NCBI GenBank assembly: GCA_044892525.1
Contig: CM097885.1
Location: 10,170,001 to 10,234,000 of the forward strand
From: Schmidtea polychroa
Lineage: Eukaryota
Reading direction: 5' to 3'
DNA: 64,000 nt
Shown here one piece after another: positions 4,379 to 30,244 of the stretch; the stretch's first letter is position 1; each line of letters starts with the position of its first letter. Both the position numbers and the translations under genes were made by a program. The notes under the pieces were generated by a model. That model searched no databases and was not told the DNA's origin. It saw nothing but the letters and a program-made list of their open reading frames with translations.

Positions 4379-5117
4379 TGTTACTCTGACTCTAAGCGTG
4401 TCTTTAACCGATTCACAAATAACACTTGACAACAGAAATCTTTATTGATAATCACAAATAAACTTTCACTTGACACTGACAATAAATTCAACACTCTGCT
4501 TGGTGAATATACAATGCTTATTACAACACTCGGTGAGGAATAGCACTTGTAAATAACACCGGATTAAAAGATCATAAATTATTGATTGGTTTCTAAACTG
4601 GATTTTTGAGCTGGTTGTTTTCCTTGACTTTCTTCACAACTTTATTCAAATAATCAAATAACTTTTCGTTTTATTTTTCAACTAATTCTTTTCTTCAAGT
4701 CTTCTCCAATAATTATTCTCCACAATTGTTTCCTTTACAATTATTTTTGGTAATCGTTTTTCCAACAACATTTCATCCAACGTCTAATTTTCTCCAATAA
4801 TTTTATCTCTCAAATCGTCTCTCAAATTGTCTCTCAAATCGTCTTCCAAATCGTTTTCAATTTCGCGTCACTTTGTCTCTAATTTTTTTCTTCTTTTTTT
4901 GTTCTTTCATGTCCACCAGTTTTCCCTTATATAGTTCGCTTCTCTTGTTGCACTCCAGATAATCAAGAGTTTTTCATTTTGCTTCTCCTACTTTTCCCGA
5001 CTGTCCCATTTTTATCTCTGACAGCTGTCAAGTTTTTTCCCCTTTTTCTTTTTTTTGTTTGACCGCCTTCTACCATCAATTCTGTTATCACTGGCAAGCT
5101 GTCGAGATAAGGATATT
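4379..5117 (-). mobile_element. Probable solo LTR, larger part; interrupted by Maverick A and continuing at 21372-21550
   Basis: Rejoined ~0.92 kb segment runs TG(4379)...CA(21550), flanked by TGGTGA / TGGCGA (6-bp near-TSD, one CpG-type change); minus-strand TATA (CTATATAAGGG ~4924-4934) and AATAAA (~4441-4446). Confidence 0.5.
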
Positions 5118-5805
5118 AGTAGGTAGAAGTGAGCCCACGATGACTCATCGTTAAGGTCAACTTAAGGTCATAGAAAATTTTGAGGTCAACTTAAGGTCAA
5201 ATTTTAAGGTCAATGTCATTTTCAGGACAGTTTAAGGTCAATTTAGGCCATTTTAAGGTCAAATCTTGAGGGCAAAGTCGATTTTAGGTTATTTTAAGGT
5301 CAACTTTTGAGGCCAAAGTCTAATTTTTCCAAATTTAAGGTCAAATTTTAAGGTCATAGAAAATTTTAAGGTCAACCCCCCTACCCCTAATTTTAAGGTC
5401 ATAGAAAATTTTAAGGTCAAACCCCCTACCCCTACCCCTAATTTTAAGGTCATAGAAAATTTTAAGGTCAACCCCCCCTACCCCCTACCCCTAATTTTTA
5501 GGTCAAATTGAGGTCAAAAATTAAAAATTTTAAAATTTTTCTAAGTCCATTTAACGAATTACTTTATAGAAAATTTTCAAAGTCAAAACACGTTTTAATA
5601 CTACGTTTGCAAATGTCTTTGTTACTCATGCATATGCATTGCAAATGTCTTTGTTACTTATGCATTTGTATTGCATATGTCTTTGTATTACACACCTTAA
5701 GGATAGAAAAATATTTCTAAGCGAGATCTAAAGTGAATGTGTGTAAAGGGCAATAAATAAGGGTAAAATCAAATTTTTTAAGAAAATACATGTAATTTGA
5801 TTAAA

Positions 5806-5897
<92 letters not shown>

Positions 5898-5961
5898 TTT
5901 ATTTTGGGCAGATAATCTATGTGTGTCTGTATATGAAAACATTGATAAGGAGCAATAAATA
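5118..5961 (+). repeat. Left TIR of element A (TTAAGGTCA subrepeats, (TA)n)
   Basis: Reverse complement of ~20538-21365 apart from subrepeat and microsatellite copy number. Confidence 0.93.
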
Positions 5962-6062
5962 TCAAATCAAATCTCTTATGTTTTACATATAACTATATTA
6001 ACCAATCAGAATCATAACCAGTATTAGTATAAATAAAACAGAATATTTAAAATTAATGTACA

Positions 6063-6369
6063 ATGTCAAAATCAAATTTTGCAGAAAACATCTTAAAAGG
6101 TTTGGTTAATGAGAATATTGCACAAAGCCTCAGTTTCCTAGTTAAACAAACTGAGAAAATCATTGAGGGAAACCATGTTGACTACCAAACCATGCTTGAT
6201 ATAGAATGCCTGGAGACGAAGAAATTTTATTTCAATAGGATTTTCGACTGTCTATTCGACGACCAAATGAAGTGGACCAGAATAATCATAGGTTTTACCT
6301 ATATGAAGATTATTATAGAAAAAAGTCTATACGATGTTGACCATTATTATCTGTGGTCTCAAGAAGTAA

Positions 6370-6413
<44 letters not shown>

Positions 6414-6519
6414 ATGATGATTGCTTGGTAGCAGCATTTATTATTTAAAACAATAAAATGATAATTTAAGCCTTTTGCTGCAAATAATGTATTTAATGAA
6501 AGAATTTTCGACTATACGA

Positions 6520-6607
<88 letters not shown>

Positions 6608-6799
6608 ATTAATTTGTAGATAGTCAAATCCAAGTTTTCGCCATGGATCGATGCCAATGGTGGATGGCACACACTAGTCGAACTTGCCCAGAACGCACAA
6701 GAAATAGAGCAAGCCAAAGCAAAAGTCAAAAGTTATATGCGATTAGCCTTGGGAGTTGTTGTATTATATGTAATGTTTAAATATTTAAATAAAAGTTAA
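6063..6799 (+). CDS. Bcl-2 family protein, 160 aa, two exons (6063-6365, 6620-6799)
   Basis: BH1-like LFDDQMKWTRIIIGFTY; BH2 SPWIDANGGWHTL; C-terminal hydrophobic anchor LALGVVVLYVMF followed by KYLNKS; phase-0 GT-AG intron 6366-6619; CCAAT (~6002) and TATAAATA (~6028) upstream. Confidence 0.88.
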
Positions 6800-6841
6800 T
6801 GTTGTTATTTATAAATATTATACTTTAAATATACACTCAAA

Positions 6842-7263
6842 CTAAAATTTATTAACACATTCACATTCATCATCTCCGCATTTCATAACATTTTCAACGA
6901 TATGATCTATACAATCGTTATATACACGCGGTTCGGTATACTTAATATTTTCAGTTATATAATCTGTAAATTCCTCCTTAGGTTCATCAATAGGTTCATC
7001 AATTTCTTGAATGATTTCCTCGTCATCTTCTTGTGTGTTTTCTTCATTAATCTGTTCTGTTATTTCCTCATCAGTTTCATCAAATCTTGAATCTTCACTC
7101 TCTGCTACCCAGTCTATATTTAATGCATTTGAAACAGATAATATATCCTCCATTTTTACACCAGATATTTCTGCTAATTTTGCCAACAAAAGGTTGATTA
7201 AATGTTCTAAACAATAAATAATTCGATCATTAACTAACCATATTAACCTTTTTCTAACGTCAT
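6842..7263 (-). CDS. Acidic protein with Cys-rich C-terminus (CGDDECEC), 126 aa, two exons
   Basis: ATG at 7263, 41-nt phase-1 intron 7207-7247; same structure in element B. Confidence 0.7.
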
Positions 7264-7421
7264 TATTAACACTTTAAAACTATAATGTAAGTTTGTTTAT
7301 AGAATGTCTTTGTTAAAATTTTCATGTATTTTGCATTGATATTGCAATTTCCTGGTTAAGTAAATGAAAAACAAATAGGACAAAATAAATTTATTAAAAA
7401 CAATAAATATAGCAACATTTA

Positions 7422-7841
7422 TTAAAATAGCTGTGAAAGTCTAGCAGACATAATTTTCCAAATTGGAGAATACACATCATTATTATCAACTTTATATCCC
7501 TGGATTGCAATTGTTATATACCAATTTTCGTTTTCTTTAAAGCTGATTTCATCAAAGGAATCATAAAATCTTGCATATCGGTTGTTGAACCATGCATGTT
7601 GATTACATGATAGATTCGCATCCAACCGTTTGAAAACCTTATCAATAGATTTAACATCTATCATTGAAAGTGTGCCGGATAAGAATTGAAATTGAGTAGA
7701 AATTAGCTTGATCGGTGACACCAATTTCATATTGATTTCTTCTTTTAAAAAATACATTTTGTAGTTGTGGAACATTTGAACAGGTTGTACAAGTTCTGCA
7801 ACAACCTTTGGTTTTTCAGTGCTTGATATTTTCTTGGTCAT
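7422..7841 (-). CDS. 139-aa protein, possible OB-fold ssDNA-binding protein
   Basis: Intact ORF with CCAAT/TATA upstream and a homolog in B; C-terminal ITIAIQGY...SPIWKIMSARL resembles viral SSB beta-strands (weak). Confidence 0.55.
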   Translation of the reverse strand: MTKKISSTEKPKVVAELVQPVQMFHNYKMYFLKEEINMKLVSPIKLISTQFQFLSGTLSMIDVKSIDKVFKRLDANLSCNQHAWFNNRYARFYDSFDEISFKENENWYITIAIQGYKVDNNDVYSPIWKIMSARLSQLF

Positions 7842-8018
7842 CGTGATTTATGATTGAATTGTAATGGTACATGGTTTTTATACCTATGACTATTGTTTAT
7901 AAACCAATCAAATTGCAGTATGTCTTTGTTTTAATTACATTCAAAATGCATTGATGTTGCATTGTCATATGTTATATGTGTCATATTATTATTATTGCTT
8001 TTATTACTTTCAAACTAA

Positions 8019-8073
<55 letters not shown>

Positions 8074-8238
8074 TTTATTTACATTTCTATTACTATTTAC
8101 TAAAAAAAAATAAATAAATAAAACAACAAATAGTTAAACATAAAAATTTATTTGGATAAAATTTGACAAAAATGATAATTATGAAGTGTCTTTACCAAAG
8201 ACCATTCGACATATCTCTGGTAGCGGAAATTGCAACAG

Positions 8239-8545
8239 CTACATCCCAAAATGCAAGGGTATTCTGCTTCCAATCTTCACATCCCAGAGAAATGTATTGA
8301 TAATATCGAAAATCCAGATTCTGGTTTCATTGTAAATTAAATCTGGGATTATTGCAACATCTCGATCTTTGAGAATATCATACAATTGCGGGTAATAAAA
8401 ATACAATCTTTCCAGTATCATTGCATGATATTCATCTGTAAATAATAATAATATGATAAATACAATTAATATTAAAAAATTTAAATTTACCATAATGTTC
8501 ATGTTCTTTTATGGCAGCTATAGCTGAACTTTGAATATTGTACAT
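8239..8545 (-). CDS. Unknown spliced protein (~83 aa), absent from element B
   Basis: ATG 8545, exon 8491-8545, 55-nt phase-1 intron 8436-8490 joins in frame; CCAAT boxes ~8598 and ~8612. Confidence 0.55.
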
Positions 8546-8672
8546 GGTTTAAAAATGATAACTAAACCCAAAACATTTTGTTATAAATAATCATCAGCCA
8601 ATTAGATTTCAACCAATCAGAATCATGCATTTCAGTTGCATCGAATTTGCAATCACATGATTTTTTAAATAA

Positions 8673-9136
8673 TTAATTAAGTGATAATAAAAAATCTAAA
8701 AATTCTTTTCCTTCAATTATTGATTTAATTTCAGATATGATATTATCAACTATACATTTGTAATCAATATTTTTATTCCAAGAATTACTATCTTACCACT
8801 AGCGAATATATTTACACACATAGGGTTATATTTTATATATCTCAAAGCTGGAAATAATTCTGGTTCGTAAACACATGGTATTAATTTTGCCAATTCATTT
8901 AAATTACAAGAAAAACCCATATCGGAAGTTACGGTTATCGATTGTATTTCTAAATCATAAACATTATATTCACTAGCTTTGATTATTTCCTTACACCACA
9001 TGATTCTACATTTACCAGTTTTGAAATATATTATGGGATATTTTTTACTTCTATTGATAAGTTGTTGTGGTTTCCCCATTGGAAATACCATTTTTGATAC
9101 ATCAGCTTTTGCCCAGTAATTTATATTTGAAAGCAT
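8673..9136 (-). pseudogene. TATA-binding-protein-like gene with a 1-nt deletion near the 3' end
   Basis: YEPELFPAL...NIFASGKIVILG; 464 nt versus 465 nt in the intact B copy. Confidence 0.88.
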
Positions 9137-9241
9137 TTTAATGAAATAATGATAAAACTCAGATATATATATAGTTATTTTAAAACGGAGTTCATTTAAA
9201 TTATCAATATAAACAATAATTATTTAGTTTAAATTTAAAAA

Positions 9242-9880
9242 ATGGAATTACGAAATGATGCAGTATACCAAATCGTTGGTCCAAGCGGTAGCGGAAAAAC
9301 ATTATTTGTTTGTAAATTACTAAAATCAAATTTATTCAAAACAGAATTCAACAATATTTATTGGCATAAGGGCGCCGACGAAGAACATGGATTGACGCAA
9401 TCAAGTTTCTGTCAGTTGAAAAACATGAAAATAGTAAAGGGATTTGATAAAAACTGGTCCAGTCGGTTGAAGAAAGATGATGTCATCATTATCGATAATT
9501 TATACCAAGAAGCCAATAAAGAAAAAGATTTTAATAATTTATTCACAAAAATCAGCAGACATGTTGGTGTAACAGTTATTTTCATAACACAAAATCTATT
9601 TCATCAAGGTGGTGCACATCGTACACGTAATTTAAATGTACAATATTTAGTTATTTTCAAGAATCCTAGAGATGCAACTGTCATTGATTTTCTTGGACGA
9701 CAAGCATACCCTAATAACCGTAATTTTCTTATCAGTGCATTTCAAGATGCTACTAAAATACCGCATGGATATATATTTCTTGATTTCACACAACAATGTC
9801 CTGATGATTTACGGGTAAAAACAGATATTTTCAACCCAAAAGGTGCCATGGTTTATAAACAAAATTCAAAACAAAGTTGA
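9242..9880 (+). CDS. A32/FtsK-like DNA packaging ATPase
   Basis: Walker A GPSGSGKT; Walker B VIIIDNL (DDL in B); SRH, ITQ and FKNPRD motifs. Confidence 0.95.
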   Translation: MELRNDAVYQIVGPSGSGKTLFVCKLLKSNLFKTEFNNIYWHKGADEEHGLTQSSFCQLKNMKIVKGFDKNWSSRLKKDDVIIIDNLYQEANKEKDFNNLFTKISRHVGVTVIFITQNLFHQGGAHRTRNLNVQYLVIFKNPRDATVIDFLGRQAYPNNRNFLISAFQDATKIPHGYIFLDFTQQCPDDLRVKTDIFNPKGAMVYKQNSKQS

Positions 9881-9892
9881 AACATATAAAAC

Positions 9893-10381
9893 ATGTTTTC
9901 AAAAACAAGGATAACAAGGAAGAAAGAACCAAAAATTCCACCAACAACTAGTTATACTCCATCTAAAGAACTTATTACTGAAAATTTTGCTGCAAAAAAT
10001 CTTATTTCGAAAAATCCTAAACCTAAACCTAAACGTAAAACCAGTAAGAAATTAAAAGTTGTTAAAAATCATCGGAGTTTCCCGTTTTTTAATACATTGT
10101 TAAAGGCACCGAGTATAAAAAGAATGAATATTTTGCAATCATTTCGAAATTTTGTTGTCGATGATTTACTCGATATTATACTTAAAGTAGTCAAAGGCAA
10201 GATTAAAATCAGTAAATCCAAAAAGCATATATTGAGTAAACATAGGAAACCTTTGTTATAATTAGTAAATAATGAAAATCGTAAACAAATGAGAAAAATT
10301 ATATATAAACAACAAGGCGGATTTATTGGTGCATTGATACCTTTGGCATTATCATGATTAGGTGGAGTAACACAGTCATAA
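9893..10381 (+). pseudogene. Basic core protein with adenovirus pX-like C-terminus; internal stops
   Basis: Lys-rich; reads past a stop into QQGGFIGALIPLA; intact equivalent in B. Confidence 0.7.
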
Positions 10382-10384
10382 ACA

Positions 10385-10612
10385 ATGGGAGCTAATCCTT
10401 CATTACCTGAAATTAAATTTAATATTAAATCTTCTTGTTGTAATGGAGAAGATTTGGACGAACCCAGAAGACGAAGCCGGTTTCGGTGGAGTCGCAAAAT
10501 TAAAGAAAAGAGTTCCAAATTCGAAAAAGGAAACCCAGAAGTGGTTATCAGACCAGCTTGCGTACAGTTTGAACAAACCAATGCAGAAACGATTTCCAAC
10601 AAGAGCATATAA
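10385..10612 (+). CDS. Small putative N-myristoylated protein overlapping the integrase 5' end
   Basis: MGANPS fits MGxxxS; SSCC; conserved in B with third-position substitutions. Confidence 0.6.
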   Translation: MGANPSLPEIKFNIKSSCCNGEDLDEPRRRSRFRWSRKIKEKSSKFEKGNPEVVIRPACVQFEQTNAETISNKSI

Positions 10613-10830
10613 AACATTTGGAATAAACGATTTATGGCAAATGCATTCGATTGAGATTATACCATATTCGAAAATTAACAATGGTTATAAATATATTTTA
10701 ACATGTATTGATGTATTCAGTCGGTTTGCCCGAGCGATTCCAGTCAAGGCAAAATCTGCAGATGAAATGTCCAAAGCTGTTAATAATTTATTTAAAAAAG
10801 GACATCCTAATAACTTGCAAACAGATTTAG

Positions 10831-10898
<68 letters not shown>

Positions 10899-11529
10899 TT
10901 AGGTAAAGAATTCTACAACAGTAAAGTCAAGCAAATCCTCAATAAACTGAAAATAAACCATTACTCAGTACATTCTCAATACAAAGCAGCCTATGTTGAA
11001 AGATTTAACCGAACTTTGAGAGATAGATTAAAGAAATTATTTGTGCATCAAGGTAATAAAAAATGGGTAAATGTTTTACCAAAAATAATAACCAGTTATA
11101 ATCATTCATCACATCGAGGACTGAATGGATTAAGACCGATTGATATCACTTCAAAAACATTCTATTCTAAAAAACATGTAAAAATTGCAAAACCTAAATA
11201 TAAAGTCGGTGACCATGTTAGAATTAGTAAAATTAGTGCATCACCATTTATTAAAAATTTTGATACAAATTGGAGTGATGAAGTCTTTGTAATTTCAAAA
11301 ATAAATACTAGCCAGAGTCTTGTAATGTATGTCATCAATGACAATGATAATAATATTGTACAAGGGAAATTTTATGAGCAGGAATTACAAGTCATTCCTC
11401 CCCCAAAAGTATTTAGAATTCAAAAAAATATTGAAAACTAAAAAGGTCGGTAAGGATAAACAATACTAAGTCAAATGGCATGGTTATCAAAACCCATCAT
11501 GGATATCAGCAAAAGACCTAATAAACTGA
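10443..11529 (+). pseudogene. Retroviral-like (rve) integrase with chromodomain; intron 10831-10902; inactivated
   Basis: LQTDLG|KEF, VERFNRTL; first catalytic Asp changed to His (WQMH vs WQMD in B); frameshift and stop in the chromodomain. Confidence 0.93.
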
Positions 11530-12508
11530 ATTTTTATACTATTTTACCAAGCAATAGCTGCCTATTAATTCATCCGGACAATCAAGCCAGTAAATTCATG
11601 GTCAATCTCCAGAATCCGATTTCTTTAAATGGGGACTGGGAAGTTGCACTGCAAGATTTTACATTCGTGTACAACACATTCCCATTTTATAGTCAATGTA
11701 AGATTGATTTCAAAAGGAATATTGTGAAAACATGTAGCGGTATCTTTGTTATCAGTAATTATGATAAAACATATCATATTCCGAATCAAATATTAGATTC
11801 GCATTGCTATATGTTTTACAAGGATGGATAAAATATCAGTTGTGATTTTAAACCATTTACAATAACATTCGAAACTATTGAAGATGCCAAACGAATGGGT
11901 TGCAATAAGTTGAAAAATGATGTTATGGAAACAGAATATTTATTACGTTTTGATCTATTTGAAGCAAACAGTTTAATGAAAGAAGAAATCAAAATATCAG
12001 TGTCGTATAATAATGAATGAATAATGATGAATTATATATTGATAAACTTGATGTGTTACTTAAATATTTAAAGTACAATTGTTCACACATATTTAAAAGT
12101 TTGGACATTGTGAAAGATTTATTGTTTACTTTCAGTTTGAATGATGACATTTGCGAAGTTACATTTGATAAATATTTGACAAATACACTTGGATTAGAGA
12201 AGCAAAAATATCGAGGAAAAGCTGATGGTATACGTAAACCAAGAATACTTGAACATCATCAACAAATGATCATATATACTAATATTATTGAGCCCATAAT
12301 TGTTGGTGATTCTAGTGTTCCTCTATTGAAATCGGTATGGATTGGAAAATATGAACACGATGAAGTTGTCAATATAAATATGGATAATCCCATGTATTTA
12401 CCAATTGCAAGCTCATGTATAAACAATATAGAAATAAATATTCGTGACGATAGTGGGAACCTTACAAACTTTCCAAAAGATTCGAAGACTCATTTGACAT
12501 TACATTTT
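11526..12508 (+). pseudogene. Minor capsid (penton-like) protein, disrupted
   Basis: FYTILPSNS...PDNQASKF...LNGDWEVAL and IYTNIIEPIIVGD...LTLHF; internal stop and deletion. Confidence 0.88.
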
Positions 12509-12512
12509 AGAT

Positions 12513-13571
12513 TTGAACGATACTTTATTGACTGTTCAGATCAAGGTTGTAGATAAAGATAGAAAGGTTTTGGATGCCAATGCAGATGTAATACCGAACA
12601 ATTTCCTGTTTCATACTCTTTTTAAAGATGCAGTGTTGGGATTTAATAATATCAAGATTGAGGGTGGAAATAATACATTCATTCACAAGGCCTTGATAGA
12701 AACTATTTTAAATTACAATTCCGATACTAAAAACACTTGTCTTACTCCTATGAGTTATGCAGCAGCAGATGATGAAAGAAAAAAGTGGGTTAAAGGTTCA
12801 AAAGTATTCACTATGTGCTCATCATTACAACTCGACTTTATGGATCAGCCGAAATATTTACTTCCTGGAGTTAATGTACATATTAGACTGAAAAGATCAG
12901 ATTCTGCATTATCTCTTACTAATGCAGGCGCACCAATATGTCAATTAGTTGATGCAAAATTATTGGTGAGAAGAGTTCGAGTGGACCCCTCAGTATTAAC
13001 TGGTCATCAATTGGGTCTTAATTCAAAACATGCAATTTATCCATTAAAGACAAAGGAAATTGTACAATTCGCTATTGCTAAAGGTGCTTCATCATTCTAT
13101 AAAGAACAAATATTTGGTGACAGAAGAATGCCTAATTTTATCCTGATAACATTTCAAAGTGAAACTCAATATAACGGATCATATACTACATCCAGCTCAA
13201 TTTTCAAAAACTTTGGTGTTACATCACTGACTTTGTCTAAAAATACAGATTATAGAGAAACATATACTCAAGATTTCGAAAGTGATAATTACTGTGCTAC
13301 ATATATGCAGAGTATTGTTAGAAATTTGGGTTATTTAGATAAAAACTTAAATTGTGGAATAACTCTTGAAGAATTTAAAACCAAATACCCATTTTTTACA
13401 TTTGTTTTAGCCCCCGATTTTGATTTAAATCAGAGTCAATTACCACAAAAAGGGAATTTACGACTGGATATAAAGTTTGCAAGAGCGATTACTGAACCGG
13501 TACATGTTATTATATATGGAGTATTTGAAAATGAAGTTCAAATTACTGCAAATAGAACTGTGCTGGTATAA
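12513..13571 (+). pseudogene. Double jelly-roll major capsid protein lacking ~52 N-terminal codons
   Basis: Polinton MCP-like motifs (LDFMDQPKYLLPGV, GNLRLDIKFA); N-terminus deleted relative to B. Confidence 0.9.
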
Positions 13572-13600
13572 ATGTGTGAATAAATCTAGAAACATTTGTC

Positions 13601-13882
13601 ATGGAGTAAGTTTTCTTTAAACTAATAAAATTATTATGTTAGTTCTATTCAGATAAATCGAATTGGTACTCAAATATTAGGTAAAGAGTTTGTTGGAGTG
13701 TACCCACTAGACAAAATTCCCTATTTAGATGTGAATCAAGCCATAATTGTCAACACAGATTCGTCTACTCTGGGAGGAGAACATTGGATTGCAATCTACG
13801 TGAAGCCGAATAAAATATATGTTTTCGATCCAATGGGATTTTACTATCCAGCCCTATTGATCAAAAAGCTATCAACTATTGG
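13601..13882 (+). pseudogene. Adenain-like cysteine protease, truncated before the catalytic Cys
   Basis: ATGGA | 37-nt intron 13606-13642 | gives MDSIQINRIG...GVYPLD...GEHW...FDPMG; homology to B stops at ~13882. Confidence 0.88.
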
Positions 13883-13972
13883 TCAAGTTGATTGCAATAA
13901 ATATATTGTAAAAAAAAATGTTGTGTTACTTTATTTAAACAAAGTCGTTACTGAATTATGTATAATAAATGT

Positions 13973-14009
<37 letters not shown>

Positions 14010-14023
14010 AGCCATGAATTTAT

Positions 14024-14233
<210 letters not shown>

Positions 14234-14564
14234 CGTTTCTCAACAATAAATGCAATCAATATTTGCAGTCCTAAAGAGGGCGTATACACATTCACAATAA
14301 AATATTTAGGACTCAAAAGAGAAACAACGCAATAAAAATAAACATAATTATGAGAACCAATATGCATTAAAAGGACAATTATATTAGTTACAACAAGTAC
14401 CATTACAAAAGTTACAAATGAATCATTATATTGGTGGTTCGATCTCATCTCTTTTCAAAACTGTTCAGAAACTGTGTCAAAACTGGAGAAACTGTGCAGA
14501 AACTAAAATAAAAATAAAAATATTTTTAAAAATAAAACGGATAAATCATTACCATTAATCATTA

Positions 14565-17500
14565 TCATTCGTCTGCAGATGATTCATCAAGAGGCAAAAT
14601 ATTATTTAATTCATTATCTAAAATATTATAATGCCCATATGCGAAGCTCTTGTTCTCTTCAACCCAAACCCTTTTATCATCGTTATTTGTAAGGGCTACC
14701 TTCTTAGTTCTAAATGTAAATAATTGATGGTTTCGTGTACCAAACCGGGATTGATTCACCTTCGGTATACGCATTCCAAGATAACAATCCACATACGATT
14801 GATGTGTGATTTCTGTTCCCTTTAATGATACACCTTTGGCTTTATTTATAGTATCATTATCACTAGTTAGCAAACTATAGCATTTGGGTCTGAGGAATAC
14901 CCATTCTTGATATGATTTGCCTTTGTTTTCGTCCTTGAATTTCCCAATTACAGAATCCAAATTTCGTGAATATAATGGATCTGTAGGATCGTAGTTGCTG
15001 GTGTCTAACAATCCTTCAGCAATCATTGCAGGAAGTAATTGTGATCGCAATTTGACATATTTACATTCGAGGAAGAATGAGTCTGTATCCCCGGCTATGA
15101 TATTTATTTGGCAATTGAACTGTGCTCGATATTTTGACAGTTCAATATATTGTAGTTCATACATTCTAAGTTTAGATAAGTCTAGCACTGTTTGACCAAT
15201 GTAGCTAGGCCTATCTAAACAAACTATATCTTTATTCAGCAAAAGGGCAATTAAATCATCAGCAATTTTAATTGAACGTCTAAATGTTGGCTTTAAAGTG
15301 CATTTAACCAATTTTTCGGCATTGTTGCACAATCTCAGATTTATTCTTTTCTTCAGATTCTCCACTGTCTTGCCGTAAACACTATTATTTAAAAGTTTAT
15401 AAAAATCTCTATCTAAACTATTTTGTGATTCAGCTCGAAGTTGGGTATTTGTGTTGATATAATCCTTCAATATCGGCTTTTGTGTAAATTTTATTGCACG
15501 ATGTATATTGGTGACTTCCACTCCGAGGGCCATATATAATTTCAAAAGTCTCCAATGAATAACATAATTAGTTTTCGCATAATGGGTTAATAATAATTTT
15601 GGTACAGTGGAATCTGGTGGACACATTTTCTCTGCTGCGACTGGAAAATCGTCTAATAGATCGTGGATATTAGACGGGATGACTAAATCAACTTCCAATG
15701 TGTATCCATAAGTTAAATTTTCTAGTTTCGAACTAATAGAGTCAACTAAAATGGATAATAATTCCACTTCATTATATATCCACTCAAAATCGCTACATGG
15801 CAAGTATTGGCTTAACGCCCACCCGTACAGGTTGTTTATATCGATATAAAGCAACTCTGTTTCATCATCTGTTACAGCGAAGTGTTTATTAACAAATGTG
15901 AGACCACCACGGATCCCACCCTCGAAGAAATTATACATCTCCATGTCCATCATTAATTCCACTGGTTCTTCTAAGGTCATGAGCGCAGATGCCCAAGACA
16001 TTCCAGGGATTCCAAAAAAAATTGAGTGGCTCGAGTCCATTATGTGCTTTTGATCTTGCTCGAAATTGTTGGAAGAAATCGTCAAGTAAAAACACATCAA
16101 GTTTTAAATAAATTTGTAAATAATCCATTAGAGTTTCGCAACTTGTTTCTTGCCATATTTGTTGCGCTATTATATACTCTTCATTTGTAACGCATTCCCA
16201 AATAGCGGGCAATTCATATGTTGTTTCTAATATTTCCTCACTTGTGGCAAAATCATAAGGAAAAATTCCTTTGTTGTTTATGATGGTTCCAGTATTGAAT
16301 ACTGAACGGGTCAAAGGCAATTCGTTCATTGTTTTTACTGCATTATGTAATGAAGTATTGACAAACTGATATGAGTCAATAAATCTTATTGTAAATTTAC
16401 CCAGCCATGCTATCAATGTTAAAATTTTCTCTGTGCTTGTTGGTATGCAGCTGAGACTCCAATGAGGAAATTGATTGAGCCCATATTTCAAAATGTGATG
16501 TAGATCATACCCTTTCAGATTATGAAATACGATGGGTAATGTTTCTCTGATTTTCCTTTGTTGATTGCATACATTGCATGAGGCTCCGAGATATTTGCCA
16601 GTGAAATGATCATGGTCTTTCACTTTCTCTGGCATTGGCTTTTTGCACAAGTAACAATTGACTGCTGTGTGGAATTGCAGCTTTTCCTGATTTGTCAAAA
16701 ATTTCATTTGACAATGCCCTCTTGTCTTATAATAAACCTTCACTATATTGTTGACAATATTTTCTACATCCATCAGAAATCTGAATACACAATCTGGTCC
16801 AATAAAATGACTATATTTCGTTGACCCAGTAAAATTATTTACCAGTAACAGTCCCGCTGCTATAGGTAAATGTTTTTGGTGTTGTCTTTCATCAAGTGGT
16901 AAAACAGCTTCGAAGTCAGCATATATAACAAAAGGCAGAGTTACCATTTTTGACCAGTCATTAAATTTTAAATCTGAGTTTTCTGGCAACGTGTATAATG
17001 TTGTGCCCAATTGGTTTTTCTTGCATAAAGCTACATGACTGTCAAAAGCATCTTCTCTTCTAAAACCATTTAAACATGTCTCGCACCATCTGCATTGAAT
17101 ACGGACTGGGCAACTATGAGTTTTTCTACAATTCATTAATCGCTGTAAATCTGGAACTGCAGTATAGTGGTATTGGCCATTCGATTCTAACAATAGTAAA
17201 TACATCGGTGTAACCCAGTTACTTTAGTCCGATGTATTATATCAATATGTGGATGTTTCATTATAATATCCACATTATCGATATCAATCATATTTTTAGG
17301 ATTGTAACTGAGGACATTGATAGCAATTCCTTCGTTATGCTTTTCGAATTTTGAAATGTCCTTCAATTTCATTGGCATATCTAATTCATTATATACCAAT
17401 TCGGACAAGAACTGTGTATAATTTTCAACATTTGTATTATCAGCCATAATGATATCTTTTTTCAAATTGGCTAGCACGCTGTATATGAAACACATATCAT

Positions 17501-18510
17501 CTCCATTGATCACATTTATTAATGCATTTTTATTTATTAAGGCTTTCGGAGTTGGAATATAATTTCTTCCGGATAATCTGGATATTTCGGAAATCTTAGT
17601 TATTTTGAAATTTATTTCAATTATTCTTATCAGACGCCATCCGCTTCCAAGTTCCGATCTGATATGAATTTTCTCGTGCAGCTTTTCAATACCATCTGTA
17701 ATAAACTTTTCAAAATTGTTCTCAGTTACCATCACCGCTTTGTTAGAAAATCTTGATGATTGGAATTCTCCATCTTTTTCGAAATCACATTCTATCCCGA
17801 ATTGAACTTTCACAGTTTTCATCTCCTTGATTGTAGATAATAGTTTATCAGAGAAAGTTTCGGGTAGATTTATCTCATTCATGTTTTTGAACGACATTTT
17901 AATTGTTTTATGACAATTTTTCAAGTCAGATTCAATCTCGACTTCTTTAGTAGGTTCCCATTCATTAACAATCTGGAAATCATCCCATATATTGTCCTCT
18001 TCTACTATTTGTTCCGTTTCCACTGGTTCTTCCACCGGTTCTTCTACTGGTTCTTCCACTGGCTCTTCCACTGGCTCTTCCACTGATTCTTCAATATCTA
18101 CTATCATATTAGTTGATCCACAACCAATCCACAACCAATTTAAAAAATTCCCTGATTCACCTATAACGATAACATCATCATCAGATTCATCTATAATGAT
18201 GATGTTATCATTAAGTTTTTGTTTTTTAGTAGGTACGTCTATTATACCGTTATTAAATAATTTTTTAAAAAATTCTTTTTTATCCGATTTAAAATATGTA
18301 AGATGATCTTTGTGATCATTATAAAATATTTCATAGGGCTTAGTGAAAAGAGCTTCGCAAAATGGGCATAAATAATTTTTTTTTATTATAATAATTTCTT
18401 AAATAGTATTTTTCCATTGCATCATGCATTGTTTCCCATCATGTTCTTTTGCGGTGCAACATTGTTTGTATAAATTACAATTGCTTTATTATGTTTCTTT
18501 TTAAACATAT
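14565..18510 (-). pseudogene. Protein-primed family B DNA polymerase, frameshifted
   Basis: IYADFE, FHNLKGYD, YIDINNLYG, KLLNNSVYGK, AGDTDS, KCY; frameshifts at ~16015 (poly-T) and ~17210; EEPV repeats and a degenerate Cys/His N-terminal region. Confidence 0.95.
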
Positions 18511-19199
18511 TTAACAATAAAAATCTCTCAAAAGTTTATATTTTTTATGGGCGGAAAGGTTGATTTTGATCTTGGTTTATATAGCGAAATGCAATATAAA
18601 AAAGAATTATTTAATTTTATAATATATTTATTTTATTATTTTATGTTTTATTTATTTTTAACCATTAAATGGTTTAATTATATGGTTTATTTATAATATT
18701 GAATTTCATTTATATTATCGGTAATTCATTTATCTCTATTGATTATCATTTATCTTAATTATTATTATTCCAAAATTATTAATATATTAAAATTTATAAT
18801 TAAGTTAATTTGTCCCCGGTATATTCAATTATTTATTCAAATTCAAAATAAGATAAAATCAATTATAATCATTCATAAAATAAATCATTAAGTGGATGTC
18901 CTCGATGATTTGATTTTATTGTATTTGTGTTAGTCTTTTTATTTGCCATACGTATTTACATGCATCAATTTTTAATTTTTTCGAATTTTCAATTTTTTTT
19001 TATAAATTTTAACTTTTTATAGATTTACACTTTTAAATTTCATTGTGCATCTAAATTTATTTTTCACCTCTATACACCATAAAAATGGACAAGGGCAGCA
19101 TTTAGCTTACTATGTAAACTTTATTTTATGAGTTACAATATTATTGAATGCCCTTAGTTATTTCAAAATTGTTCAATTTTTTTTTATCACAATTCATAT

Positions 19200-19880
19200 T
19201 TTTGAAATGAAGTTTCATTTATACTTTCATCATTTTTTATAATAAAATTCATGTTGATCGTCTTAATATAGTTAAAAAAAATATTGTCTAATAAATTTCA
19301 TTTAAAATTTGAACTTTGTACTAATTTTATTTAATATATTACTAATTCTCAATAATTTTAAGAAATTTATTTAAATGAATTCATCTAAATATTTACCAAT
19401 AAACATCTGATTAAATATCATTTTTTTTACTACTTTAAATTTTCTTAAACAAAGATATTATTTTAATATGTTAATTATTTAACAATCCATATATACTTTT
19501 AATTTCACTTACATGAAATACTAGAAGTTTCGTGATGCAATAAAATTTTTAATTAGTCTCGTCTTAGTTGATTAATGTAAAAATAATATTGCAAATAAAA
19601 ATTCGATTTTGAAATGAAGTTTTATTTATACTTTCATCATTTTTTATAATAAAATTCATGTTGATCGTCGTAATATAGTTAAAATAAACTAACAATAACT
19701 ATATTAATATTGTCTAAAAAATAATTTCAGTTAAAATTTGAACATTGTACTAATTTTAATTAATAATTTATATATTACTAATTTTCATTAATTTTAAGAA
19801 ATTTATTTAAATGAATTCATCTAAATATTAACATCTGATTAAATATCATTTTTTACTAATTTAAATTTTCATAAACAAAA
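19200..19880. repeat. ~270-bp direct duplication inside element A (~19200-19460 and ~19607-19880)
   Basis: Shared TTTTGAAATGAAGTTT...GTTGATCGTC...CATCTGATTAAATATCA blocks. Confidence 0.8.
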
Positions 19881-19917
19881 AACTATAGAACTAGAAATCT
19901 AAGTTAAATTTTGTAAT

Positions 19918-20201
19918 TTACTTACATTTTATCTTCTTTGCGAAATATTCAATAGTTCCAGCAGCATAAGCAACAAAATCAGCAACTGAATCCTCATTAA
20001 AATTTCCTGGAAAAGACAATTAAGAATAAACAATGAATTATTATTATTTAACTTTTTCGTCCATATTCTTTTGCAGGTATCGAAGTAACAAAATGTTCTT
20101 CAATTATGACACAATCGCTATCTAGAAAATATATATATATATTTTAAAATGAATTAAAAAAAAATGAAAATACCATTTTCGTAATCGATGTCTGTGATCA
20201 T
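19918..20201 (-). CDS. Putative three-exon 61-aa ORFan
   Basis: ATG 20201; phase-1 introns 20122-20173 and 20007-20052 keep frame: MITDIDYENDSDCVIIEEH...GRKRNFNEDSVADFVAYAAGTIEYFAKKIKCK; ATTGG and TATAAA upstream. Confidence 0.5.
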
Positions 20202-20537
20202 TATCTGTAAAGTTATTTCGTAATAATGAAAATGTTTATAATGAAAAGCATACTTTATTCTCCAGCCAATTAAAATTAAGATAGAAAATATATTACGTTG
20301 TGGTATTTTAAAATTATTTTGTGAAAAGTGAAATAAATATGTGCTTAAATTAACTATGATCATAATTACATATTTTTATTTAAAATAAATAAATAAAATA
20401 TATTTTTTTAAATGTCTGATAATGACCATTTTATTTTACCATTTTTGATTTTGCCCTTATTTTGATTCGATTCAATTATGTATTATATGGTAGACTTTCG
20501 AATGATATAAAACTTGTGTGTGAGTAAAACCGTCCCT

Positions 20538-21365
20538 TATTTATTGCTCCTTATCAATGTTTTCATATACAGACACACATAGATTATCTACCTAAAATAA
20601 AACAAATATATATATAATTTTCATAAATTTTTATCAAATTACATGTATTTTCTTAAAAAATTTTGATTTTACCCTTATTTATTGCCCTTTACACACATTC
20701 ACTTTAGATCTCGCTTAGAAATATTTTTCTATCCTTAAGGTGTGTAATACAAAGACATATGCAATGCATGAGTAACAAAGACATTTGCAATGCAAATGCA
20801 TGAGTAACAAAGATATTTGCAATTCAAATGCATGAGTAACAAAGACATTTGCAAACATAGTATTAAAACGTGTTTTGACTTTGAAAATTTTCTATAAAGT
20901 AATTCGTTAAATGGACTTAGAAAATTTTTAAAATTTTTAATTTTTGACCTCAATTTGACCTTAAAATTAAGGGTAGGGGGTAGGGGGTTGACCTTAAAAT
21001 TTTCTATGACCTTAAAATTAGGGGTAGGGGGTAGGGGGGTTGACCTTAAATTTTTCTATGACCCTAACATTTTCTATGACCTTAAAATTAGGGGTAGGGG
21101 GTAGGGGGGTTGACCTTAAAATTTTCTATGACCTTAAAGTTTTCTATGACCTTAAAATTAGGGGTAGGGGGTAGGGGGGTTGACCTTAAATTTTTCTATG
21201 ACCCTAACATTTTCTATGACCTTAAAATTAGGGGTAGGGGGTAGGGGGTTGACCTTAAAATTTTCTATGACCTTAAAATTAGGGGTAGGGGGGTTGACCT
21301 TAAAATTTTCTATGACCTTAAGTTGACCTTAACGATGAGTCATCGTGGGCTCACTTCTACCTACT
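20538..21365 (-). repeat. Right TIR of element A (G-rich GGGGTAGGGGGTAGGGGG subrepeats)
   Basis: Inverted copy of 5118-5961. Confidence 0.93.
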
Positions 21366-21699
21366 GATATTGTTGTTTTCCTTTTTCCCCGATTTCAAAA
21401 TTCCTTTTCCTTTTTGTACTAATTAATTAGTACTGACCTTGATTTTCATTTTCCTGTTTGATTCCTTTTATTTCCTTTATCTTTCTCATTTTTAATTTCT
21501 TTTCACTTCCGTTTTCTTTTCTGAGTTTCTATAGATCGTCCTGTTTGTCATGGCGATCTTCCCCCAGGTAATTTTATTTATTTATTTGTAAATTGTTATT
21601 TAGGTATCCTCAACATATACAACATAGTATTAAACATTTATTTAATGTTTTATCATCAATATAGTTTATGCTTAAAAAGCGTTGGCGCACTTCGAATGA

Positions 21700-22243: not shown

Positions 22244-24020
<1,777 letters not shown>

Positions 24021-24253
24021 GCGTTTGTAACAGATAATATATCCTCCATTTTCACACCAGATATTTCTGCTAATTTTTCCAATAAAAAGTTTATTATAAA
24101 TTCTAAATATTAAATAATTTAATAATTAACTAATCATATTAACCTTTTTCTGTAGTCATTATTAGTATTTTAAAACTATAGTATATATTTGTTTATCGAA
24201 AATAAGCGAAAACAAATATAACTAAATACATTTATTAAATACAACAACATTTA

Positions 24254-24673
24254 TTAAAATAACTGTGAAAGTCTAGCAGACATAATTTTCCAAATTGGTG
24301 AATACACATCATTATTATCAACTTTATATCCTTGGATTGCAATTGTTATATACCAATTTTCGTTTTCTTTGAAGCTGATTTCATCAAAGGAATCATAAAA
24401 TCTTGCATATCGGTTGTTGAAAAATGCATGTTGATTACAAGATAGATTCGTATTCTACCGTTTAAAAATATCATCAATAGTTTTAACATCTATCATTGAA
24501 AGCGTGCCGGATAAAAATTGAAATTAGGTAGGAATTAGCTTGATCGGTGACACCAATTTCATATTGATTTCTTCTTTTAAAAAATACATTTTATAGCTGT
24601 GGAACATTTGAACAGGTTGTACAAGTTCTGCAACAACTTTTGGTTTTTCAGTGCTTGAAATTTTCTTTGTCAT
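24254..24673 (-). pseudogene. Homolog of the 139-aa ORF (7422-7841) with a premature TAG
   Basis: Same length (420 nt); CGG TAG where A has CGG TTG. Confidence 0.8.
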
Positions 24674-24793
24674 CGTGAATTATGATTAAAATGAAATGTT
24701 ACAGGGTTTTTATACCTTTGACTCATGCATATCAACCAATCAGATTATAGCATGTCTTTGTTTTAATTGCATTGATATTGTAATGATAAATAA

Positions 24794-25258
24794 TTAATTA
24801 AGTGATAATAAAAAATCTAAAAATTCATTTCCTTCAATTATTGATTTAATTTCAGATATGATATTATCAACTATACATTTGTAATCAATATTTTTTATTC
24901 CAAGAATTACTATCTTACCGCTAGCGAATATATTAACACACATAGGGTTATATTTTATATATCTCAAAGCTGGAAATAATTCTGGTTCGTAAAAACATGG
25001 TATTAATTTATCCAATTTATTTAAATTGCAAGAAAAACCTATATCGGAAGTTACGGTTATCGATTGTATTTCTAAATCATAAACATTATATTCACTAGCT
25101 TTGATTATTTCCTTACACCCCATAATTCTACATTTACCAGTTTTGAAATATATTATTGGATATTTTTTACTTCTATTGATGAGTTGTTGTGGTTTCCCCA
25201 TTGGAAATACCATTTTTGATACATCAGCTTTTGCCCTGTAATTTATATTTGAAAGCAT
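24794..25258 (-). CDS. TATA-binding-protein-like protein, 154 aa, intact
   Basis: Two TBP repeats: SNINYRA...IIYFKTGKCRIMGCK and EIQSITVTSDIGF...YEPELFPALRY...VNIFASGKIVILGIK. Confidence 0.9.
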   Translation of the reverse strand: MLSNINYRAKADVSKMVFPMGKPQQLINRSKKYPIIYFKTGKCRIMGCKEIIKASEYNVYDLEIQSITVTSDIGFSCNLNKLDKLIPCFYEPELFPALRYIKYNPMCVNIFASGKIVILGIKNIDYKCIVDNIISEIKSIIEGNEFLDFLLSLN

Positions 25259-25364
25259 TTTAATAAAATAATTATAAAAACTCAGATATATATATAGTTA
25301 TTTTAAAACGGAGTTCATTTAAATTATCAATATAAACAATAATTATTTAGTTTAAATTTAAAAA

Positions 25365-26495
25365 ATGGAATTACGAAATGATGCAGTATACCAAATCGTT
25401 GGTCCGAGTGGTAGCGGGAAAACATTATTTGTTTGTAAATTACTAAAATCTAATTTGTTCAAAACAAAATTCAACAATATTTATTGGCATAGAGGCGCCG
25501 ATGAAGAACATGGGTTGACGCAATCAAGTTTCTGTCAGTTGAAAAACATGAAAATAGTAAAGGGTTTTGATAAAAACTGGTCAAGTGGTTTGAAGAGAGA
25601 TGATGTCATCATTATCGATGATTTGTATCAAGAAGCCAATAAAGAAAAGGATTTTAATAATTTATTCACAAAAATCAGCAGACATGTTGGTGTAACAGTT
25701 ATTTTCATAACACAAAATCTATTTCATCAAGGTGGAGCACATCGAACACGTAATTTAAATGTACAATATTTAGTTATTTTCAAGAATCCTAGAGATGCAA
25801 CTGTCATTGATTTTCTTGGACGACAAGCATACCCTAATAACCGTAATTTTCTTATCAGTGCATTTCAAGATGCTACTAAAATACCGCATGGATATATATT
25901 TCTTGATTTCACACAACAATGTCCTGATGATTTTCGGGTAAAAACAGATATTTTCAACCCAAAAGGTGCCATGGTTTATAAACAAAATTCAAAACAAAGT
26001 TCAAAACATATAAATCATGTTTTCAAAAACAAAAAACCAAAAGTTCCACAAACAACTAGTTATACTCCATCCAAAGAACTTATTACAGAAAATTTTGCTG
26101 CAATGAATCTTATTTCGAAAAATCCTAAACCTAAATCTAAAAGTAAAACCACTAAGACAGTAAAAGTTGTTAACAATCATCGGAGTTTCCCGTTTTTCAA
26201 TACATTGTTAAAGGCACCAAATATGAAAAGAAACAGTATTTTGCAATCATTTCCAAATTATGTTGTCGATGATTTACTCGATATTATACTTAAAGTAGTC
26301 AAAGGCAAGATTAAAATCAGTAAATCTAAAAAGCAATTATTGAGTAAACATAGGAAACCTTTGCTATCATTAGTAAATAATAAAAATCGTCAACAAATGA
26401 GAAAAATTATATATAAACAACAAGGGGGATTTATCGGTGCATTGATACCTTTAGCAATATCATTATTAGGTGGAATAATAGGAAGTCGATCATAA
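25365..26495 (+). CDS. Packaging ATPase fused in frame to the basic pX-like core protein
   Basis: GPSGSGKT, IIIDDL, SRH; C-terminus KQQGGFIGALIPLAISLLGG. Confidence 0.88.
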   Translation: MELRNDAVYQIVGPSGSGKTLFVCKLLKSNLFKTKFNNIYWHRGADEEHGLTQSSFCQLKNMKIVKGFDKNWSSGLKRDDVIIIDDLYQEANKEKDFNNLFTKISRHVGVTVIFITQNLFHQGGAHRTRNLNVQYLVIFKNPRDATVIDFLGRQAYPNNRNFLISAFQDATKIPHGYIFLDFTQQCPDDFRVKTDIFNPKGAMVYKQNSKQSSKHINHVFKNKKPKVPQTTSYTPSKELITENFAAMNLISKNPKPKSKSKTTKTVKVVNNHRSFPFFNTLLKAPNMKRNSILQSFPNYVVDDLLDIILKVVKGKIKISKSKKQLLSKHRKPLLSLVNNKNRQQMRKIIYKQQGGFIGALIPLAISLLGGIIGSRS

Positions 26496-26498
26496 ACA

Positions 26499-26681
26499 AT
26501 GGGTGCTAATCCTTCATTACCAGACATTAAATTTAATATCAAATCTTCTTGCTGTAATGGAGAAGATTTGGACGAACCCGGAAGACGAAGCCGGTTTTGG
26601 TGGAGTGGCAAAATTAAGGAAAAGAGTTCCGAATTCGAAAAAGGAAACCCAGAAGTGGTTATCAGATCAGCTTGCGTATAG
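26499..26681 (+). CDS. Small putative myristoylated protein overlapping the integrase
   Basis: MGANPSLPDIKFNIKSSCC; homolog of 10385-10612. Confidence 0.6.
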   Translation: MGANPSLPDIKFNIKSSCCNGEDLDEPGRRSRFWWSGKIKEKSSEFEKGNPEVVIRSACV

Positions 26682-26959
26682 TTTGAACAAACCAATGCAG
26701 AAACGATTTCCAACAAGAGCCTATAAAACATTTGGTATTGACGATTTATGGCAAATGGATTTGATGGAGATGATACCCTATTCGAAAATTAACAATGGGT
26801 ATAAATATATTTTAACATGTATTGATGTATACAGCAGGTTTGCACGAGGAATACCCGTCAAGGCAAAATCTGCAGAAGAAATGTGCAAAGCTGTTAATCA
26901 TTTATTTAAAGATGGACATCCTAATAACTTGCAAACTGATTTAGGTATTAATAATATTA

Positions 26960-27020
<61 letters not shown>

Positions 27021-27650
27021 TTAGGTAAAGAATTCTACAACAGTAAAGTCAAGCAAATCCTCAATAAATTGAAAATAAACCATTACTCGGTACATTCTCA
27101 ATACAAAGTTGCTCATGTTGAAAGATTTAACAGAACATTGAGAGATAGATTAAAGAAATTATTCGTGCATCAAGGTAATAAAAAATGGGTATTGGTTTTA
27201 CCAAAAATAATAACAAGTTATAATCATTCATCACATCGAGGACTTAATGGATTGAGACCAGTTGATATTACATCAAAAACATTCTATTCTAAAAAACCTG
27301 TAAAAATTACAAAACCGAAATATAAAGTAGGTGGCCATGTTAGAATTAGTAAAATTAGTGCATCACCATTTATTAAAAATTTTGATACAAATTGGAGTGA
27401 TGAAGTCTTTGTAATTTCAAAAATAAATACTAGTCAGAATCCTGTAATGTATGTCATCAGTGATTATGATAACAATATTGTACAAGGAAAGTTTTATGAG
27501 CAAGAATTACAAGTTATTCCTCCCCCAAAAGTATTTAGAATTCAGAAGATATTGAAAACTAAAAAGGTTGGCAAGGATAAACAATACTATGTCAAATGGC
27601 ATGGTTATCAAAACCCATCATGGATATCAGAAAAGGATCTAGTAAAGTGA
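26557..27650 (+). CDS. rve integrase with C-terminal chromodomain, apparently intact; intron 26945-27024
   Basis: DDE residues in WQMDL, QTDLG|KEF, VERFNRT; chromodomain YYVKWHGY...SWI; the 80-nt GT-AG intron must be removed to restore frame. Confidence 0.93.
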
Positions 27651-28667
27651 ATTTTTATACTATTTTACCAAGCAATAGTTGCCCGCCTATTAATTCATCC
27701 GGACAATCAAGCCAGTAAATTCATGGTCAATCTCCAGAATCCGATTTCTTTAAATGGTGACTTGGAAGTTGCAATGCAAGATTTTACATTCGTGTACAAT
27801 ACATTCTCATTTTATAGTCAATGTAAGATTGATTTCAAAAGGAATGCTATGAAAACATGTAGTGGTATCTTTATTATCAGTAATTATGATAAAACATATC
27901 ATATTCCGAATCAAATATTAGATCCGCATTGCTCTATGTTTTACAAGGATGGATTAAATATCAGTTGTGATTTTAAACCATTTACAATAACATTCGAATA
28001 TATTGAAGATGCCAGACGAATGGGCTGCAATAAGTTGAAAAATGAAGTTATGGAAACAGAATATTTATTACGCTTTGATCTATTTGAAGCAAACAGTGTA
28101 ATGAGATAAGAAATCAAAATATCAGTGTCGTATAATAATGAAGTTGAAGAATCATTCACATTCGCTGACGAATTATATATTGATAAACTTGATGTGTTAC
28201 TTAAATATTTAAAGTACAATTGTTCACACATATTTAAAAGTTTGGACATTGTGAAAGATTTATTGTTTACTTTCAGTTTGAATGATGACATTTGCGAAGT
28301 TACATTTGATAAAAATTTGACAAATACACTTGGATTAGAGAAGCAGCAATATCGGGAAAAATCTGCTGGTATACGTAAACCAAGAATACTTGAACATCAT
28401 CAACAAATGTTCATATATACTAATATTATTGAGCCTATAATAGTTGGTGATTCCAGTGTTCCTCTATTGAAATCGGTATGGATTGGAAAATATGAACATG
28501 ATGAAGTTGTCAATATAAATATAGATAATCCTATGTATTTACCAATTTCAAGCTCATGTATAAACAATATAGAAATAAATATTCGTGACGATAGTGGAAA
28601 ACTTATAAACTTCCCAAAAGACTCAAAAACTCATTTGACACTACATTTTCGTAAAGTAGATGGCTAA
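27647..28667 (+). pseudogene. Minor capsid protein, frameshift and internal stop
   Basis: FYTILPSNS...; 4-nt insertion at ~27672 and TAA at 28107. Confidence 0.88.
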
Positions 28668-30217: not shown

Positions 30218-30244
30218 ATGTATACAGAAACACAAAAAGTTGTC

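Follow-up and report, generated by a model that had tools for sequence, protein, structure and literature searches.

A Maverick/Polinton element in the window (the whole 64,000-nt stretch of Schmidtea polychroa DNA analysed here) carried a Bcl-2-like gene in two exons, both of which are under purifying selection between Maverick subfamilies. Taking the evidence below as a whole, we consider it probable that this is a working accessory gene of the Maverick lineage, which was captured from a host gene, gained an intron and has a pro-survival role.

A two-exon Bcl-2-like gene in Maverick element A

Element A (5118–21365; 16,248 bp) had AGTAG...CTACT ends and TIRs (left TIR 5118–5961, + strand; partner 20538–21365), and was flanked by the same 6-bp TSD, GATATT, on the left (5112–5117) and right (21366–21371). 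TIRs and a 6-bp TSD are Maverick criteria, as is the core gene set of pPolB, retroviral-type integrase, packaging ATPase, cysteine protease and capsid, which was present in element A. Pfam matches were obtained for pPolB, integrase, ATPase and protease, that of the integrase being below the cut-off in the window copy; the capsid gene candidate matched clusters of the double jelly-roll type in the Atlas at 0.97, with no Pfam match and no PDB sequence match. About 525 nt of the sister copies were missing at 12508, so that one small gene and the start of the capsid gene were lost, and the other genes compared contained 9 small lesions in 5,380 aligned nt. Most core genes of element A were broken; a poly-Ile stretch in the integrase was an intron-like insert and not decay.

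Two further elements lay in the window. A second Maverick of a sister subfamily (22370–32469) was internally deleted, had neither a polymerase nor a Bcl-2 match, and contained an acidic ORF piece mirrored in both arms. A palindromic Maverick-derived element (35118–48613) had ~6-kb arms that were 100% identical, with a polymerase gene in each. A TBP-like gene, matching Pfam PF00352 above the cut-off and with an omega of 0.09, was found in both window elements (8750–9223 and 24794–25346, both on the - strand) and also in a separate Maverick family, D.

The Bcl-2-like gene started with an ATG at 6063 on the + strand. Exon 1 (6063–6365, +; 303 nt, 101 codons) encoded helices 1–6 and BH1 (KWTR), and LFDDQMKWTRII lay within its 101-residue translation. 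Exon 2 (6620–6799, +; 180 nt) comprised 59 codons and a TAA stop and encoded BH2 (W-x-x-x-x-GGW) and a tail anchor, its product being PWIDANGGW followed by a hydrophobic tail. Joining of the two exons gave a 160-residue protein. When the 1,299 stop-to-stop ORFs of the window were searched with a profile of seven relatives, from which the subfamily of the window copy had been left out, the two exons ranked first and second (E 4e-10 and 3e-4) and matched adjoining profile positions (33–122 for exon 1, 126–146 for exon 2). A weak profile match at 39035–39562 (E 0.02) was rejected, since it fell in polymerase sequence.

As had been predicted from the window sequence, the gene had its own CCAAT/TATA promoter just inside the left TIR. 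A CCAAT-box motif (6000–6014, +; CCAAT at 6002–6006) and a TATA box, TATAAATA (6028–6035, +), were located in unique sequence outside the left TIR, 40–75 nt inward of its inner edge (5961), and the CCAAT core and the TATA box were unchanged in all five aligned copies of four subfamilies. The extended CCAAT motif had six matches in the window against 0.14 expected; the others were one in element A (8611–8625) and four in the palindromic element (40001–40060; 43660–43719). The core genes were preceded by a different word, ATAAACAA (spotted by eye), and this difference fits an early, host-driven Bcl-2 gene.

The intron, the copies and their selection

The two exons were separated by a phase-0, (TTA)n-expanded GT-AG intron (6366–6619, +; 254 nt, AG at 6618–6619). 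The original prediction had described it as (TTA)n-filled; its GT-AG limits held, but the filling was not (TTA)n alone. A private 109-nt insert (6413–6521, - strand), missing from the other 19 of the 20 introns compared, corresponded to one end of a high-copy repeat and contained a poly(A)-signal-like hexamer as well as a (TAA)n tail. This repeat gave 40 exact matches among 40 scored candidates, and the insert is probably a 5'-truncated non-LTR retroelement. Extra AG dinucleotides brought in by the insert may leave the window copy less well spliced than its sister copies. The repeat is young, and its copies (L150–L161) sat in (TTA)n tracts; in several of them the truncation point was marked by short inverted duplications, as in LINE- or Penelope-type retroelements, a class to which it would then belong.

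Among the family-A loci cut out, 29 of 30 had both exons and a GT-AG insert of 28–713 nt at one common site, which was shared with diverged subfamilies. The insert length was not a multiple of three in 28 of these 29, so read-through cannot reach BH2. In a wider set having both exons, a clean GT-AG insert was found at the identical codon boundary in 20 of 24 rows, representing 16 of 20 distinct loci; among more diverged loci, 11 of 20 had the identical boundary with GT-AG inserts of 38–46 nt in all three length phases. The site persisted in Maverick proteins as low as 35–47% identical to exon 1, and the sequence inside the intron varied between loci, from simply AT-rich to (TA)n or (TTA)n. That exon 2 is constrained when read in the spliced frame, while the intron site is fixed and the intron length free, constitutes strong comparative evidence that the gene would be spliced. 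Contigs of four runs, whose RNA status is a guess, were compared with another family-A copy and had no joint at the intron, a repeat exactly there being skipped by the aligner. At loci of the L046–L060 type where the intron was a multiple of three, the acceptor TAG formed an in-frame stop, and retention would give a short hydrophobic tail instead of BH2; this alternative tail is probably a by-product of AT-rich sequence. With the exon ranks and the exon 2 constraint, the fixed site supported the predicted spliced Bcl-2-family gene of 160 residues with exons around 6366–6619.

A second (TTA)n GT-AG intron-like insert interrupted the integrase gene at 10831–10902 (+), inside the QTDLG-KEF motif. 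It was seen in 17 rows of families A and B and window element B (26932 region), was 72–171 nt long and in several cases out of frame, and had AG/GT...AG/GT flanks; its length was zero in the single family-D copy covering the site. The Maverick branch with the Bcl-2 intron thus appears to have an intron-like insert in a core gene also.

A DNA search of the genome with exon 1 gave at least 40 close copies, all 90–100% identical (40 scored of 965 candidates), and an exact 22-mer of exon 2 occurred 27 times. Further Maverick subfamilies were taken from a Pfam search of the genome (150 scored of 909 candidates) and a host-gene search (150 scored of 2,004). Family D contained an intronless Bcl-2 relative of 144 residues beside the polymerase, in the same accessory cluster as the TBP-like gene. 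The gene, its intron site and its promoter were kept across elements that were at most 76% identical in DNA.

Omega was estimated by a codon likelihood model from five copies of four subfamilies, for each exon separately, the Nei-Gojobori method being saturated and abandoned. One subfamily copy containing a stop was left out for exon 1, and the ATPase and integrase were left out for lack of three stop-free sequences. Exon 1 gave 0.133 over 98 codons and exon 2 gave 0.137 over 55 codons, with a 2dlnL against omega 1 of 95.4 and 52.9, respectively. From three sequences each, omega was 0.034 for the capsid, 0.090 for the TBP-like gene, 0.138 for the protease and 0.078 for Bcl-2 exon 1. Singleton changes in 17 family-A copies comprised 27 non-synonymous, 11 synonymous and 6 stops, corresponding to an omega of ~0.85 (kappa 3 assumed). 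Thus dN/dS across genomic copies, named with the original prediction as a means of checking it, revealed purifying selection between subfamilies and about neutral decay of family-A copies once inserted, and the window copy shows no sign of domestication.

The Bcl-2 gene was intact in 12 of 30 family-A loci, and 7 of the 18 broken ones belonged to one tandem array. It had been argued that the gene is intact in element A while most core genes are broken. The core genes are indeed mostly broken, apart from the integrase stretch mentioned above, but at the lesion rate of element A (9 in 5,380) 480 nt would escape without a lesion with a chance of ~45%; given this and the 12 of 30 intact copies, the contrast carries no weight. 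A count of zero Bcl-2 breaks against 16 in 24,941 core nt of nine long copies was rejected as evidence, because these copies had been chosen for an intact Bcl-2 gene.

Other arrangements were seen among the copies. At G000:C1:15.6–16.1 Mb (L024–L030), family-A fragments lay in tandem ~57 kb apart and had two Bcl-2 stops in common. Three pairs of inverted Bcl-2 copies (L014/L017, L015/L016 and L049/L050) were separated by 8–15 kb, which suggests that they are mirror-image derivatives having the left end on both sides. In subfamily B (L107:384–881, - strand), a conserved ORF of 166 residues with a hydrophobic N terminus was divergent from the Bcl-2 gene and had no Pfam match above the cut-off.

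Fold, motifs and the probable host donor

Pfam PF00452 matched exon 1 alone at 18.4 bits (E 0.003; curated cut-off 31.4) and gave no match to exon 2, while the intronless relative scored 32.7 bits and sister subfamilies read across their short intron 32–34.5 bits. The best Bcl-2-family PDB sequence match of exon 1 was A1/Bfl-1 (E 0.005). Fold models were made of exon 1 alone and of the natural intronless relative, as stand-ins for the spliced protein. With the model of the relative (pLDDT 70), ranks 1–29 of 48,161 chains all had the Bcl-2 fold; the best of them reached Z 6.9 with 109 residues aligned at rmsd 4.1, and the next family came to Z 4.3. With that of exon 1 (pLDDT 75) the best match was A179L (Z 7.5, rmsd 4.4, 95 aligned), in a mixed list where helical-repeat proteins, aligning with residues 39–101 only, were interleaved. 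These fold scores are middling, Z being under 8 for both models. Foldseek returned Bcl-2-family chains only, none at E 0.001 or better. The helical bundle with a hydrophobic helix 5 at its centre that marks the Bcl-2 family was recognised with both models, the list being mixed for exon 1. The top lead in the Atlas was a Bcl-2 cluster at 0.90, which is weak by the Atlas's own yardstick. Matches to PPR proteins were rejected as sums of weak repeats.

The BH1 consensus is NWGR, and the Bax/Bak-type BH3 motif is L-x-x-x-G-D in helix 2. BH1 of the window protein (KWTR, with Trp and Arg kept and Gly lost) and BH2 aligned with those of canonical host paralogs, and a C-terminal hydrophobic 19-mer (hydropathy 1.42, moderate as are the tails in general at 1.0–1.4) was flanked by basic residues; the BH1-like segment, the BH2 PWIDANGGW and the tail anchor were thus as predicted. 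In the alignment, helix 2 (LSFLVKQTEK) had no L-x-x-x-G-D motif of the Bax/Bak type. Family D had Lys in place of the BH1 Arg, and with the BH1 glycine also replaced, groove binding may have changed.

Phylogeny against host Bcl-2 paralogs, likewise named as a check, placed a single-copy Bcl-2-like host gene nearest to the Maverick proteins. This "WSR" gene (G000:C1:268544056, loci L042/L061) lay head-to-head with a neighbour which we take to be a peptidase gene. It had a GTGAGT donor directly after GGW and a tail-anchor exon ~3 kb further, and two database proteins matched both parts in one chain. In BLASTP against the window protein the WSR gene scored 78 bits and the next host paralog 36. 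In a tree of 16 rows, rooted on four other Bcl-2 paralogs of the same genome and containing no Bcl-2 of other animals or of adintoviruses, the Mavericks, the host WSR gene and two relatives (P0005 and P0010) formed a branch with support of 99/99; intron-bearing Mavericks were supported at 95/93 and intronless ones at 88/82. This tree excluded host044, the domain of the LTR polyprotein and three host fragments that were short or had long branches; when they were included, the same branch had 84–85. A single Maverick clade was not rejected (AU p 0.17), so one capture and two are both compatible with the data. Trees in which subfamilies A, B, C and E grouped with either of two canonical paralogs having NWGR were rejected (p 0.039 and 0.004).

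BH1 read RWSR or KWSR in the host lineage, KWSR or TWSR in the early-branching intron-bearing Mavericks, and KWTR in subfamilies A, B, C and E. The host readings indicate that the BH1 glycine was already lost in the donor and that only the change of S to T arose in Mavericks. An earlier caveat that treated KWTR as a change of the element was thus misplaced, the loss of glycine being common to the host donor lineage.

The host WSR gene, P0005 and P0010 resembled the Maverick protein in a short helix 5–6 hairpin, Y-x-x-W-S, the BH1 W-S-R and the tail anchor. Identity between the WSR gene and the Maverick protein was ~26%, and the Maverick helix 1–2 loop was shorter. The host intron (~3 kb) followed GGW, whereas the Maverick intron lay 16 codons earlier; the Maverick site was uninterrupted in all nine host-type loci read, and the host site was uninterrupted in Mavericks. 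The simplest history would be that an intronless copy was captured and an intron was then gained within the element. The copy may instead have been captured together with the host intron, which it then lost.

Relatives outside this genome were few: two proteins, 2 of 1.84 billion representatives, 2 of 70 candidates and, in metagenomes, 1 of 54 stretches. A search outside the genome with a canonical host paralog gave no homolog among 7 candidates, and no viral contig was present among 20 candidates. Seven near-identical canonical NWGR Bcl-2 copies, continuous past GGW, were found in a tandem region at G000:C4:89.9–90.8 Mb (L031–L037).

Predicted role, alternatives and meaning

The explanation that we favour runs as follows. 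An ancestral Maverick would have taken up an intronless copy of the divergent single-copy host paralog, and one Maverick branch would later have gained a short intron, located 16 codons ahead of where BH2 ends; (TTA)n slippage may have lengthened this intron in subfamily A. Early transcription by host RNA polymerase II would start from the CCAAT/TATA promoter, exon 1 would be joined to exon 2 by the spliceosome of the host, and the tail-anchored 160-residue protein would be placed in the mitochondrial outer membrane (or the ER). There it would most likely act as a pro-survival sink for host BH3 helices, because it has no BH3 signature of its own and, in the window copy, keeps the BH1 arginine. 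Cell death would thereby be delayed during DNA copying, integration or capsid assembly by the element; it is on the replicating element that selection would act, and inserted copies, that of the window included, would decay. In the available part of one source, BH3 is needed for pro-apoptotic activity, most viral Bcl-2 proteins hold pro-apoptotic partners in the groove while NF-kB is the target of some, and a mitochondrial pathway with Bak/Bcl-2 exists in planarians (PMC7022251). On balance, we regard the pro-survival role itself as fairly likely.

The same pro-survival mechanism could instead have been selected through copying inside host cell lineages, by protection from integration or replication damage, without infectious spread. 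We rate this as a serious possibility, although below an even chance. A Bcl-2 domain is also found in LTR-type polyproteins of ~3,000 residues in the same genome (PMC6431247, in part), and on this account the claim that the lineage manipulated cell death like an infectious virus is not established by the gene. Planarian Polintons are piRNA targets and are de-silenced during differentiation, in differentiating somatic cells (PMC8532177, in part), and introns require a nucleus but no virion. Against this, the capsid was more strongly constrained than the Bcl-2 gene in the three-sequence comparison, which in vertebrates is taken as a sign of particle-based reinfection (PMC8097293, in part).

A functional cargo whose Bcl-2 fold is used outside apoptosis, for damping of innate immunity or NF-kB, for autophagy or for ER calcium release, as by the host donor or by poxvirus A49-type proteins, seems to us unlikely. 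The altered BH1 (WTR, WSR or WSK) would agree with it, as would A49, which tied with the best fold rows (Z 7.4 with exon 1, Z 6.1 with the intronless relative), and viral Bcl-2 folds acting outside apoptosis, several of them on NF-kB, are documented (PMC7022251, in the part available). However, BH2, the BH1 Trp, the tail anchor and, in the intron-bearing families, the Arg are conserved under selection, and sequence searches favour cellular A1/Bak-type proteins. It is much less probable still that the protein works as a release or competition factor, either promoting death or counteracting the pro-survival proteins of the host: Bak constructs were the best Bcl-2-family PDB matches of the alignment profile and BOK came first in one fold list, by under 1 Z, but these ranks are ties resting on the BH1 helices only, and the BH3 G-D signature is absent. 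Neutral host DNA, captured, passively carried and decaying, is hardly credible, being true of single inserted family-A copies (singleton omega 0.85; 12/30 intact) but refuted for the lineage by an omega of 0.13–0.14 between subfamilies and by conservation of gene, intron site and promoter at no more than 76% DNA identity; nor is the gene confined to the window copy, which has at least 40 close relatives.

Bcl-2 as Maverick cargo is of an already known kind, and our finding is less surprising than it was first scored. Homologs of both Bcl2 and IAP have been observed in adintoviruses, and three labels in Fig. S2 name Bcl2 (Starrett et al. 2021, PMC8502044, in part); the likeness is a Bcl2-like accessory gene in a capsid-encoding Maverick, and the portion of that paper searched has no planarian term, no introns and no donor gene. 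Vertebrate Mavericks resemble those described here in TIRs, a 6-bp TSD, a size of ~16 kb, core genes under purifying selection, accessory flanks and degradation of most copies (Barreat and Katzourakis 2021, PMC8097293, in part). They differ in that the genes of intact elements are given as having no introns (citing Kapitonov and Jurka 2006), with no mention of Bcl in the text covered, whereas GT-AG inserts were found here in the Bcl-2 and integrase genes. Intronless genes are a descriptive and not a defining trait, to which family D conforms. Burro LTR retrotransposons of planarians are likewise giant mobile elements with a BCL2-like domain in the same kind of host, but this domain is part of a polyprotein in another element class, on a long branch of unsure tree position (PMC6431247, as far as available). 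The viral Bcl-2 proteins (ASFV A179L, those of poxviruses and herpesviruses, and adenovirus E1B-19K) share a compact Bcl-2 fold without a BH3 of their own, according to the fold rows and Atlas leads; those of large DNA viruses are only ~12% identical, with no sign of common viral descent, and their activities were measured, whereas ours is predicted from sequence.

Introner insertions are described in dinoflagellate maverick-polinton-like elements (PMC11957031, in part) and group I introns in PLVs (PMC12220804, in part). A term search in the available text of a nematode Polinton preprint (10.1101/2023.08.22.554363) gave no mention of Bcl. A literature search, which left most subscription papers and the Repbase reports outside, gave no account of spliceosomal introns being conserved in Maverick genes of animals. 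A named host donor, together with intron gain in the cargo and integrase of a Maverick, may be new.

In one genome one can follow a probable donor gene, the disappearance of its intron, the appearance of another and continued purifying selection, which makes this a traceable capture of a host gene by a Maverick. The introns run counter to the published intronless description, and since they interrupt Maverick genes, ORF-based annotation overlooks cargo genes and calls working genes broken. More tentatively, the Maverick lineage might depend on the spliceosome through its own introns in the Bcl-2 and integrase genes, and two unrelated kinds of giant mobile element, Mavericks (possibly twice) and Burro-type LTR elements, might have converged on Bcl-2, because survival of the carrier cell is a route to spread in an animal with adult stem cells. 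If this were true, the introns would be a control point for element activity and would provide a clean case, open to dating, of a virus-like genome gaining introns. Should the protein be pro-survival, it would link transposon activity to the control of cell death, in a form that can be tested in an RNAi-tractable group of animals.
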